Program-made: the position numbers
Source: a virus
Lineage: Duplodnaviria; Heunggongvirae; Uroviricota; Caudoviricetes
DNA length: 21,332 bases
IMG/VR virus record: IMGVR_UViG_2563366990_000019
Location: 1-21,332 of that record
Direction: 5' to 3' (one strand)
Shown: piece by piece, positions 6,001 through 9,000 of the stretch
Position numbering within the stretch: the stretch's first letter is position 1
Layout: each line of letters starts with the position of its first letter

Positions 6001-9000
6001 CGTTCGCCTGCCGGATGGGTACCACAAGCCACAAACTGCTGGCCCTTAGCGAGCAGCTCTATTTGTTTGTTTTCGCCTTCCAGGCGGTGACCACGTTTAC
6101 GGTAGTCGCCATCAACAGCAATCAGGTACAGGCATTTATGACTGTCAGCCCGCCAGCGACGTGGCGGAAGTTCCCCCAGGCATGACAGGATAATATTGCG
6201 TACGATCTCCTGCATCCCGGCGTCATTGATATCGCAGTCCAGAGCCACCACCCCGTCGCCAGTACGAACGCAAATACCGTAATCGGGTTCGTTCGACCAC
6301 CGGGAAAAATCGTTTTCCGTAACAACATAGTTAGCCCAGTCGGGGATACCAACAACCTTACGTTGGCCATTGTAGCGACTGGGAGTTTTGCCGAAATTAT
6401 GAGACAGCTTGCTATTAGGCGACAGTTCTGCACAGGGATTGGACACCACAGGTAAAAGCCTGTCTGTCATCCCCAACACCAGATCGAAGTGGAACCACTC
6501 ATCGGGCGTAGCTCCCCAGGGTTTGTTATCAGGCATGGGTTACACCTTTTGCTGCTCTGAATTTTCGCCGTTTAATAGCCAGTCAGGATCGCATTTCAGA
6601 ACTTTTGCCAATTCAAGGATGAAACCGGTACGGGTGGCGCGTCCTGACTCAAGGTATTGAACAGACTGCTGGCGCATGCCAACACTTTCAGCCAATGAAG
6701 TTTGGGTTATACCTAAAGCTTTGCGGCGCTCCTTTATACGTGAAGCAAGGGTAGAACTGGTCATTGAGTAAGCCCTCATTATTACAGGTTTACTTGTAAT
6801 TACCTCACAGGCAACCTTGTTTGTCAAATACAGAAGTATCTGTAATCATCAATGACAGAAAAGGAGTCAACATGAATCTTGCCAACCGAGCTAAAAAACG
6901 CAGAACAGAACTAAACTTAACTCAGGTCGAAGTTGCGAAACGAGCGGGCATTAGCCAGCAGTCGATTGAAGCTATAGAGAACGGGAAAACACTTAAACCA
7001 CGCAATCTTCTTGCTTTAGCGTCAGCTCTTGAATGCGATCCTAAATGGCTACTTCTTGGGGGCGATGTTGTTACAGATTTCAACTACGGAGCCCGAAGGG
7101 TGCCTGTTCTAAGCTACGTACAAGCAGGGGCTTTCACAAGCGCTGAGCTACTTCGTGAAGAAGGTGATTTCGAATACATTCTCACCACGGCTGAGCTATC
7201 AGAAAGTTCATTTGCGCTACGTATACGTGGGGATTCAATGGAACCTGAATTTAAAGAGGGGGACATCGTTATAATTGACACTGACGTATACCCTACTCCT
7301 GGTGAATTCGTTGCGGCATGTAACGGTAGCCACGAAGCAACGTTCAAAAAATACCGCCCGGTAGGGATTGGCGCTAAGGGTGAGGAAGACTTTGAACTTG
7401 TTCCATTGAATAGTGATTACCCTATTTGTCGCTCCTGGGAAAAACCAATTAAGATCATAGGGACAATGGTAGAACATCGCATATTCCGCAGAAAAAGATA
7501 ATCGCATCCTGACTACTAAACAAAGAGGGCTTAGGCCCTCTTTTTTTATTACCTGTAAAAACAAGTAATTAGGTTAATAATGCATTTTATTACCAGAATA
7601 CCTGTTGACGCACTTACAGGTTTGCTTGTATTTTTAACCGCAATAAGTAATCGCTCTTTAACAAACTGAACCGCGTGACAGGTAAGCCGCAGTACTCCTG
7701 GCAAAATGAAATGGCACCCGATGGGATCGAGGTAAGCGCCGAGTCCGTATGCGTACGGTAAGCGTAGAGGACAACACCGCGACGAGCTGATAAGTCACGC
7801 AAATTGAAACGCCCCGATGATGGGGCGTCTGAACCAATGGAGGAAAACATCATGCACAAGTAAAACGCTCAGACCGCAGCAGCCGAACCACCAAAGAGAA
7901 CTGAATGAGGAAACGGTGTGAAAACATATAAACCGCTCAAAGGTGAATGCCCTGCTTGCCAAGCACAACTTCAGGCACCAAAGCCTGAACGATACCAAAT
8001 CAACGAATGTTATGAGCACTGCCCTGAATGTGGTGCTTTCCTGTACGCCATTGCAACGCACTGGCGTGTCCGCTTCAACCTTGTGGTACCTCGTACGCAC
8101 AATACCAACTGAATCATCCATGTAATTGCTGTGTGTAGTCTTTGCCCGCCTCACGTGACGGGCTTTTTTATGTCTGAAAGCGCACTCGCAACAGCGTGCT
8201 CCCCGATATGAAAAAAGGAATACAACCAATGAAACCTGAACACCTCTATCGACTGACGGGGCGCGATGTTCTCCGTTATCGCCGTAAAAACTTCGATTTG
8301 ATGACCGGTCTGGCCGTTGCCACTGCGCTCGGTCTGATCATCACTTTCATTCTCCTTGTAGCGAGGACCACAGTATGAGTTTAGAAACCAGTCTCGAACT
8401 TAATAATCAACTTCTGGCACAACATAATGCGCTGCTTGAACGTCTTATCCGCACAATGGCATCAGGTATTGTTATGCATCCTGACACGATTTCACGAGTG
8501 CAGGAATGTCGGGATACAGCAACTGAAGCTGAAAACATGTCAGCGGCAATGACACTGGATGATCTGGAGTTCAGCGACGTTATCGCACTGGCTGGTTTCT
8601 ACCCGGTAGCCACCCCTATCACAGAAGACATGCTGCAACGTGCTGTTGCCTACCGTGATGCTGAAGGCGATAAACGAGTAGTTCAGATTGATGCTCTCGA
8701 CAGCGCATTACAGGGCGTCAAACGAGCCAGGGCGCTGCTTAAACCTGCTCTCCTGGACCTGTCCCGTAACATTCTTAAGTTCTGGGACGACCTGCCAACC
8801 ATCGGCGAGCGACGTGCTTTTGCCGAGCAGCTACTTGATGCACCTGCAGATGGGCGTGATGAAGTTAAGCCGAAAAGGGCCAGTAACAAAGATGGAGAAC
8901 GCACGGGGCCGTTTTACGTCAAAAATGTATCCGGCACAGCAGCCAGTGAACTCCACACCTTACGCAAGTTGAACGAGATGCTGAAAAAAGGCCATATCGA

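Follow-up and report, generated by a model that had tools for sequence, protein, structure and literature searches.

The small RNA (sRNA) RprA has a natural fragment, RprA60-105, which is the most conserved part of the molecule and which, when overproduced, is sufficient to down-regulate csgD mRNA and CsgD (PMC3465796). The last 47 nucleotides (nt) of RprA occur in vivo alongside full-length RprA and repress narP (PMC9262595), and StxS, an sRNA of Shiga toxin (Stx) phages, shares its rpoS seed with RprA, DsrA and ArcZ (PMC7547250). The locus considered here is the interval 7592-8378 of the record IMGVR_UViG_2563366990_000019, a tailed phage sequence of 21,332 nt that was analysed at its full length and is referred to as the window. 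The interval starts with a pL-like early promoter and a boxA, continues through an untranslated leader and an open reading frame (ORF) of 64 amino acids (aa) for a Cys4 zinc-ribbon protein, passes a hairpin with a T-tract, and ends with an ORF for a 49-aa membrane protein. It appears to be the modular early-left leader of a temperate enterobacterial phage, and its hairpin region has the features of a phage-borne copy of the processed, active half of RprA. With moderate confidence we prefer this explanation as a whole, including the working proposed below, to the alternatives. In the literature no description of a phage-borne RprA homologue or of an RprA 60-105 module was found, coverage of subscription journals being partial.

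The evidence for the RprA-like element begins with the hairpin itself, which the sequence-only reading had taken for a terminator at 8144-8170. The hairpin and the T-tract are indeed present: GCCCG (8144-8148) and CGGGC (8159-8163) form the two arms of a stem of 5 base pairs (bp) plus 1 with a folding energy of -9.8 kcal/mol, TTTTTT (8164-8169) comes next, and the region 8144-8169 thus has the G+C-rich hairpin and the U-tract of an intrinsic terminator. A simple terminator scanner did not report it, since a stem of 5 bp leaves a loop of 10 nt and the scanner accepts no more than 8. What needs revision is the view that the hairpin is a terminator alone, a mere barrier to transcription; it is better read as the end of a copy of processed RprA. 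Over 23 nt, ATTGCTGTGTGTAGTCTTTGCCC, the phage sequence equals K-12 rprA, and the terminator follows in the same register, its stem showing a compensatory A-U to G-C change. By our own count on the K-12 sequence, 8125-8169 corresponds to RprA nt 60-105, and a weaker similarity reaches back about 16 nt further, to CTGAAT at 8109. The RprA family (RF00034) matches 8064-8173 with 50.4 bits (E ~1e-5; gathering score 70), the 3' half alone being aligned confidently, and eight other phage copies reach 47-66 bits. At gathering thresholds Rfam returns nothing for 7500-8400, the RprA match appearing only with an E-value threshold.

The pattern of conservation within the element points in the same direction. 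Of the 47 IMG/VR loci that retain the upstream sequence, 46 have the seed with one mismatch or none, including loci where the 300-aa protein encoded downstream is at 62-76% identity. The fetched loci together contain 164 copies of the seed, behind which stand 49 different terminator sequences; 158 of the copies score as a hairpin plus U-run. Pairing is preserved in the alternative stems (GCCCGCC/GACGGGC, GCCCGUC/GACGGGC, GCCCCUC/GAGGGGC and GCCCGC/GCGGGC), and the upstream junctions differ as well. As a separate observation, the seed with a covarying terminator is also present in the IMG/VR loci L067, L074, L100, L072, L094 and L118, and in some loci the module is preceded by a hairpin NNNNN-AGGCA-NNNNN resembling one near the 3' end of STnc100.

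The module is not confined to the gene neighbourhood seen in the window. The bare seed is found in at least 120 IMG/VR contigs and, among the matches listed, 73 of 121 occurrences are without the 49-aa ORF; six of these 73, all from temperate phages, were viewed closely and have the module a few hundred nt downstream of a cro/CI pair. Among deposited genomes it is carried by the Escherichia phages Eeyore, Flotzy and LLS, and by the lytic N4-like Erwinia phages Ea9-2, Frozen, Rexella, Gutmeister and Tellus, in which it lies directly after thyA (L010, 1200-1245). Weaker, partial matches occur in Cronobacter phage phiES15, Klebsiella phage Kp4866-6 and Erwinia jumbo phages. A search of complete E. 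coli genomes with the final 47 nt of RprA gave 6065 places in 5424 genomes, with a maximum of three per genome and 27 places on plasmids; therefore several hundred genomes, roughly a tenth at most, have extra unannotated copies resembling the RprA 3' end. A scan of genome contigs with a phage-specific 21-mer gave a single Citrobacter match and is uninformative on spread.

Predicted pairing is also consistent with an RprA-type function. Against csgD mRNA the seed forms 15 contiguous pairs at positions -98 to -84 with an energy of -30.1 kcal/mol, compared with -17.4 +/- 2.9 kcal/mol for shuffled sequences, none of 500 being as good. The phage equivalent of the rpoS-pairing segment gives -21.2 kcal/mol, a value matched by 35% of shuffles, whereas RprA nt 31-72 gives -32.4 kcal/mol with rpoS, reached by 0.7% of shuffles. 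Upstream of the phage seed no conserved promoter of its own was seen, RcsB boxes not having been searched for, and a dedicated promoter within the zinc-ribbon ORF was considered and rejected, the upstream sequence being different among cassettes.

Several observations weigh against an sRNA role. The terminator stem is weaker in the window than in rprA (-9.8 versus -12.8 kcal/mol), and within the published csgD site I some of the pairs involve RprA stem nucleotides that are altered in the phage copy. Two loci depart from the pattern: L059 (2740-2800) has lost the seed together with the 5' terminator arm, and the distant relative L011 (420-480) keeps the gene order and the terminator with a different sequence, CCTTGCCAAGCCCTTTGG, at the position of the seed, and therefore the module must be regarded as dispensable. 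The L011 sequence hints at seed swapping. Furthermore, pL is expected to be repressed in lysogens, and the benefit of repressing curli and biofilm genes in a cell that is already induced is not obvious. The occurrence of the module in lytic Erwinia phages suggests a real benefit during infection, whatever the target might be.

The most serious alternative follows from these points. The RprA-like element could be just a terminator picked up from rprA by recombination, with no role in trans, its seed being kept by recent spread or by a function in cis, such as an entry site for RNase E or Hfq. Phage mosaicism can spread short blocks fast, the match lies below the Rfam gathering threshold, and both the accumulation of the RNA and its action in trans are themselves predictions, all of which would fit such an origin, as would the loss seen in L059. 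However, a terminator would need the stem and the U-tract only, and it is the stems that vary, with 49 versions against a constant stretch of 23 nt upstream. The seed keeps its sequence where the flanking proteins are strongly diverged, it occurs in unrelated lytic phages, and the piece that has been kept is the naturally active processed part of RprA with its 15-bp match to csgD. Considering this, a terminator acquired for its own sake is unlikely, although by no means negligible, and a phage copy of the active half of RprA is the reading that we retain. The positions of this element and of the other features of the locus are collected in table 1.

Table 1. Features of the early-left interval and the genes on either side, in window coordinates
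Feature	Position	Strand	Details
LexA/S24-type CI repressor	6821-7501	+	
Two repressor-operator-like sites	7592-7605; 7616-7629	-; +	motif ACAGGTNNNCTTGT; overlap the promoter
pL-like early promoter	7605-7634	+	TTGACG-18-TATTTT; promoter scan
boxA	7653-7664	+	GCTCTTTAACAA; sole match in the window
Structured leader RNA (comparative prediction)	7673-7828	+	multibranched domain closed by GCGUGAC/GUCACGC (7673-7800), then hairpin ACGCCCC...GGGGCGU (7809-7828)
64-aa Cys4 zinc-ribbon ORF (fold predicted)	7918-8112	+	GTG start; GAGGA Shine-Dalgarno 6 nt upstream
Putative mimic of processed RprA	8125-8169	+	seed ATTGCTGTGTGTAGTCTTTGCCC (8125-8147); stem 8144-8148/8159-8163; U-tract 8164-8169
Conserved hairpin between terminator and 49-aa ORF	8179-8200	+	in predicted fold
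49-aa membrane protein, C-terminal anchor (phrog_11981)	8229-8378	+	ATG start; AAGGA 9 nt upstream
300-aa protein (phrog_6784), function not assigned	8375-9277	+	first large gene of replication/recombination module

The hairpin between the terminator and the 49-aa ORF shows a compensatory change across relatives (AGCGCA/TGCGCT versus AACGCA/TGCGTT). In the region 8164-8220 the U-tract with the adjoining AUGUC can pair with GAUAUGAAAAAA, located just upstream of the Shine-Dalgarno sequence of the 49-aa ORF, thereby enclosing this hairpin; such pairing may act on read-through transcripts by controlling their stability or translation.

The beginning of the interval agrees with the sequence-only reading, which had placed a pL-like promoter and a boxA here: both are borne out by the promoter scan, by the operator motif and by an exact boxA match. 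The motif ACAGGTNNNCTTGT has four matches in the window where 0.26 are expected. Since two copies overlap the promoter and the motif recurs only between cro and cI (6784-6820), the promoter is very likely under repressor control. The boxA agrees at 12 of 12 positions with GCUCUUUAACAA, which we take to be the rrn-type consensus and to which GCTCTTTAACAA is equal. The boxA of lambda is degenerate, whereas that of the window is exact to the rrn consensus.

boxA also forms the left edge of a conserved leader block that extends to about position 7828. Over 14 distinct copies the consensus fold (RNAalifold) contains 45 pairs with 98.7% of cells paired. Five pairs show compensatory changes, a number equalled by 2 of 500 shuffles, slid controls giving 0-1, and among the copies the closing helix has C-G, A-U or U-A as its second pair. 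The single-sequence fold of 7640-7845 is no better than shuffles (z = 0.31), and the support for a structured RNA comes from the comparative analysis; with the limited diversity among the copies, it is moderate. Rfam gave no match to the + strand of this block. The block is retained behind three different immunity regions, and at 86% identity it is found in Rac-like prophages upstream of kil/recE-type operons (L013 and L014, at 2497-2680). The boxA-led leader of about 150 nt is a candidate N-independent antitermination or leader element. A 34-aa ORF (7817-7921, +), which begins in the loop of the leader 3' hairpin and whose stop codon overlaps the GTG of the zinc-ribbon ORF, was rejected as a gene; it has no Shine-Dalgarno sequence, is not kept in relatives and is probably spurious.

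Comparison with relatives divides the interval into three parts: the conserved leader, a variable slot, and a conserved right-hand block that runs from the stop-codon region (CTGAATCATCC..., ~8109) through the terminator to the 49-aa ORF. The left junction of the slot lies between about 7829 and about 7880 and varies with the relative. In other E. coli prophages and in the deposited phages vB_EcoM-606R2, -689R2 and -611R5 the slot holds a reverse-oriented 189-aa ORF, and in further prophages an unrelated 68-aa ORF; altogether, the boxA leader and the terminator occur with at least three cassettes other than the zinc-ribbon ORF. The 189-aa ORF is exemplified by L004 (1879-2448, -) and the 68-aa ORF by L005 (1884-2090, +); neither of these alternative cassettes has a Pfam family or a PADLOC match. 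Different slot ORFs on the same strand end inside the conserved CTGAAT junction, which means that their stop codon is shared with the start of the RprA-like block.

The 49-aa ORF behaves differently from the contents of the slot. It is a conserved gene with a C-terminal transmembrane helix, as had been supposed: residues 24-45 (LMTGLAVATALGLIITFILLVA) are uncharged and lie between RRKNFD and RTTV. The ratio of nonsynonymous to synonymous substitution rates (dN/dS) is 0.31, and the gene is under purifying selection. In the Enterobacter relative a 2-nt indel lies between the alternative GTG (8196) and the ATG (8229), and supports the ATG as the start, the 49-aa reading being the conserved one. 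The stop codon overlaps the start of the 300-aa gene (ATGA, 8375-8378), and the codons for the C-terminal ILLVAR overlap the Shine-Dalgarno sequence of that gene. Homologues form 52 clusters of 46-50 aa, except for three longer or partial ones, and come from Escherichia, Salmonella, Citrobacter, Enterobacter, Edwardsiella and Trabulsiella. The ORF was detected in 49 of the 50 fetched loci, and in 47 it is directly upstream of the 300-aa gene. Over 21 sequences the N-terminus, MKPEHLHRLTGRDVLRYRR, which is cytoplasmic, is nearly invariant, while the helix varies. The protein is annotated as hypothetical, its sole family match is phrog_11981, and neither Pfam at E <= 0.1 nor PADLOC gave a match, Kil families included.

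The sequence-only reading had likened this protein to Kil, and it could indeed be imagined as a peptide that kills the host or inhibits its division, or as a factor of superinfection or lysis timing, instead of a partner in replication. Small phage membrane peptides are often toxic, and this one is small, has a hydrophobic C-terminus and is encoded in an early repressor-controlled operon. The comparison with relatives speaks against the analogy: besides the missing family match, the ORF stays with the 300-aa gene, overlapping its start, and is never swappable, and the strongest conservation falls on the 19 N-terminal cytoplasmic residues and not on the helix. A Kil-like role is accordingly improbable, and the 49-aa ORF appears, from its position and conservation, to be a core gene of the replication/recombination module and not an accessory killer gene. 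lambda Kil, Rac KilR and Mu Kil are likewise small, early and repressor-controlled; unlike them, the 49-aa protein is anchored at its C-terminus and fixed beside the 300-aa gene, and no sequence similarity to them was detected. lambda Kil is not known to be a membrane protein.

The zinc-ribbon ORF is the occupant of the slot in the window. It follows the promoter and boxA and precedes the hairpin and T-tract, as the sequence-only reading had described, and it is conserved. The same reading had put its product in the position of N and had considered read-through of the hairpin as its possible effect. Such a protein would modify RNA polymerase, or bind the leader RNA, in order to pass the terminator at 8144-8169. 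On the one hand, translation downstream of pL and boxA begins with this ORF, which lies right before the terminator that precedes the replication genes, L011 retains the order of zinc-ribbon ORF, terminator and 49-aa ORF, and binding to nucleic acids or RNA polymerase is common among zinc ribbons. On the other hand, the protein (MKTYKPLKGECPAC...) has no arginine-rich motif, with only four Arg in 64 residues, the first of them at position 25, and its gene assorts independently of both leader and terminator. Among complete E. coli genomes, 150 have the terminator block, 104 the leader block, 58 the zinc-ribbon ORF and only 7 the full combination. The 50 IMG/VR loci encoding the 300-aa protein comprise 14 with the zinc-ribbon ORF only, 20 with the leader only, 3 with both, 10 with neither and 3 that are truncated. 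Leader and terminator are accompanied by the 189-aa or the 68-aa ORF instead, the former also in deposited phage genomes that have both elements and are without the zinc-ribbon ORF, and in L006-L008 the ORF stands behind a wholly different leader without boxA. Because the ORF is independent of leader and terminator, whereas N travels with its cognate nut site, an N equivalent is very improbable, and the pattern argues for an optional, dispensable accessory cassette.

That the cassette encodes a protein is clear from its evolution. Homologues at 98%, 89% and 76% identity occupy the same position in prophages of E. coli and Enterobacter bugandensis, and an exhaustive profile search among 1.84 billion representatives added only two further clusters, at 58% and 52% identity, making five homologue clusters overall. 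Compared with the Enterobacter homologue, dN/dS is 0.15 and 19 of 34 differences fall on third codon positions. The Shine-Dalgarno sequence is conserved, the GTG start is replaced by ATG in one relative, and the frame is open at 52-76% protein identity. The four Cys of the CPAC (residues 11-14) and CPEC (residues 35-38) motifs, C11, C14, C35 and C38, are invariant in six family members, down to 52% identity, together with about 20 other residues, including KPLKG, KPxRY and IATxW; C31 is not. An AlphaFold model built from the six sequences is a five-stranded all-beta protein with a predicted local distance difference test (pLDDT) score of 82.6, corresponding to a beta zinc ribbon. A first model from four sequences was poor and helical (pLDDT 59.7) and was discarded, and it counts as a point against this fold. 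The CxxC knuckles and the predicted fold nevertheless indicate a Cys4 zinc ribbon, with zinc binding as a prediction. The notion that the ORF is not a gene, its conservation being that of an RNA (the 5' portion of an sRNA precursor, for instance) and its Cys pattern being due to chance, has in its favour that NCBI PGAP leaves it unannotated in all 40 listed genomes and that homologue clusters are so few among billions of proteins, and is hardly credible in the face of the codon pattern, the open frame, the invariant residues, the alternating start with its conserved Shine-Dalgarno sequence, the confident model from six sequences and a detectable link to Mu gp6. Because of dN/dS, the third-position bias, the invariant Cys residues, the conserved Shine-Dalgarno sequence and the model, the ORF is regarded as a gene under purifying selection. 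The 40 genomes are among the 58 of 5426 complete E. coli genomes that have the ORF, and it thus represents an unannotated gene family carried by about 1% of them.

The nearest named relative of the family appears to be gp6 of phage Mu (Mup06, formerly E5; phrog_3786/PF26833). The family member P0005 has a precomputed hit to PF26833 (Phage_Mu_gp6), matches phrog_3786 at 2.6e-9 and is 37% identical to Mu gp6 over 35 residues; a rescan of P0005 against Pfam did not return PF26833, the Pfam copy used probably being without that family. The window protein itself reaches E 0.051 with phrog_3786, and the family profile aligns with Mu gp6 at 83.6% probability (hhalign) with a shared C-x2-C-x20-C-x2-C spacing. 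Like the zinc-ribbon protein, Mu gp6 is small and belongs to the early region; it has 25 N-terminal residues that the window protein is without, and its gene adjoins Mu kil. The sequence comparisons point to a distant link, which names a kinship and not a mechanism. Other searches were less informative. Pfam matches to zf-IS66, Nop10p, TFIIB, LysW, YacG and others are sub-threshold and generic, and no function was assigned from them. LysW serves as an amino-group carrier, has an acidic tail at its C-terminus and is encoded in a biosynthetic operon; none of this is found at the zinc-ribbon ORF, and the likeness is in fold only. A sequence search of solved structures gave nothing below E 0.2, a fold search of BFVD returned only uncharacterised phage proteins, PADLOC had no match, and tblastn against deposited phages gave only a weak match in a Pseudomonas phage (31% identity, E 0.01).

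The wider window is that of a prophage. The - strand carries Q, a tRNA, a VapE/prim-pol replication protein (4317-6536) and a Cro-like helix-turn-helix protein (6540-6827). On the + strand the operon continues from the 49-aa and 300-aa genes through a DUF2800/PD-(D/E)XK exonuclease, an Enc34-type single-stranded DNA-binding protein, a BRO/Ant protein and DNA polymerase A. Over 7500-8400 the window is 99.9% identical to the Stx2a prophage of E. coli 89-3156, its closest relative among complete genomes, and the layout of cI, prim-pol and Q fits the non-lambdoid replication type called "Eru10" in Stx phages (PMC8951638). The stx genes are absent from the window, although the 89-3156 prophage has stx2AB at the corresponding place.

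Some further elements of the window were noticed in passing. The tRNA (2996-3069, - strand) and a DUF6645 ORF are only about 560 nt apart, within 2432-3239. In the stretch between them, just downstream of Q, there is a full-length Rfam match to STnc100 (162 bits; 2655-2860, -) with a terminator at its end, and by analogy with StxS it may be a short pR'-tR' late-leader RNA. The RNAs isrK (54 bits) and C4 antisense RNA (76 bits) occur in tandem at 11292-11477 (+), directly before a BRO-N/antirepressor-type ORF (11492-12292), an arrangement that suggests, by analogy, P1/P7-style antisense control of an antirepressor in the prophage. The gene for DNA polymerase A (13033-15096, +) is an intact 687-aa ORF in the window and is annotated as frameshifted in the nearly identical 89-3156 prophage (L001, 14534-16596).

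Taken together, the position and conservation of these parts allow a working of the leader to be proposed. After induction, Nus factors would be loaded at boxA onto the transcription that starts from pL, by analogy with rrn; rrn operons and other boxA-led untranslated transcripts are the basis for expecting Nus factors to counteract Rho. The Nus-loaded polymerase could then pass through the long untranslated leader without being terminated by Rho and with no need of an N protein. Part of the transcripts would end at the RprA-type terminator and the rest would read on into the replication genes. Either the terminated transcripts or RNase E products of the read-through RNA would yield an RNA about 50-60 nt long that binds Hfq and contains the seed of RprA 60-105, and this RNA would act on targets of processed RprA such as csgD mRNA, and not on rpoS. 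The zinc-ribbon protein would be a dispensable early accessory that binds some host or phage macromolecule and is not an antiterminator. Judged from its place beside the 300-aa gene and from its nearly invariant N-terminus, the 49-aa protein most plausibly serves, through that N-terminus, as an inner-membrane tether for the 300-aa protein or for the replication/recombination machinery. Modular leader, RprA mimic, N-free boxA and membrane tether together make up the explanation that we consider the best, and which as a whole is somewhat more probable than its negation; the sRNA mimic in it is inferred from sequence comparison.

What could such an element be good for beyond this locus? It is a serious, if tentative, possibility that many enterobacterial phages use an exact mimic of processed RprA, placed at the end of a transcript, to seize the csgD/curli and narP part of the Rcs/RprA regulon while sparing the rpoS arm. 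The carriers would be temperate phages, with the module in their early-left leaders, the lytic N4-like Erwinia phages and apparently also the jumbo Erwinia phages; the seed would be fixed, the terminators and flanks free to evolve, and in the window the zinc-ribbon mRNA would serve as the RNA precursor. If this is true, phage sRNAs that mimic a core sRNA of the host would form a widespread class. If the module is active, phages would have copied the working half of that sRNA, and prophage induction or infection would be linked to curli, biofilm and the other outputs of RprA. Small zinc-ribbon and membrane-peptide genes are ordinary in phage early regions, and the two genes alone add modestly to what is known. 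Phage sRNAs, StxS included, are known as well, and the part that appears to be new is the RprA 60-105 module in phages. An early operon that has a consensus boxA and a structured leader but no N protein also makes N-independent early antitermination directly testable in such phages, a group that includes Eru-type relatives of Shiga-toxin phages.

Compared with known antitermination systems, the locus resembles lambda N/nut, HK022 put and the rrn boxA in having a boxA right after the early promoter, an adjoining structured RNA, and a terminator ahead of the delayed-early genes. Unlike lambda N/nut, the window leader has neither an N-like protein nor a boxB hairpin of the lambda type. The HK022 put site is a two-stem element, whereas the leader described here is predicted to form a multibranched domain of about 130 nt and a hairpin.

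Among sRNAs, the closest parallels are RNAs of phages or of transcript 3' ends, such as StxS, from the pR'-tR' transcript of Stx phages, and CpxQ, with AgvB and AsxR as related cases; the window RNA is predicted to be, like them, an Hfq-type by-product of the terminator in a regulated transcript. It would differ from these in three respects, namely in copying a host seed verbatim, as a mimic and not as an antisense sponge, in being of the csgD type and not rpoS-activating, and in belonging to the early-left and not the late leader. With RprA (RF00034) the phage copy shares the identical 23-nt seed, the terminator and U-tail in register, and the 15-bp complementarity to csgD site Ib. It differs from RprA in being without the 5' half, which includes the rpoS-pairing region, in the sequence of its stem, and in its location inside a phage early transcript.

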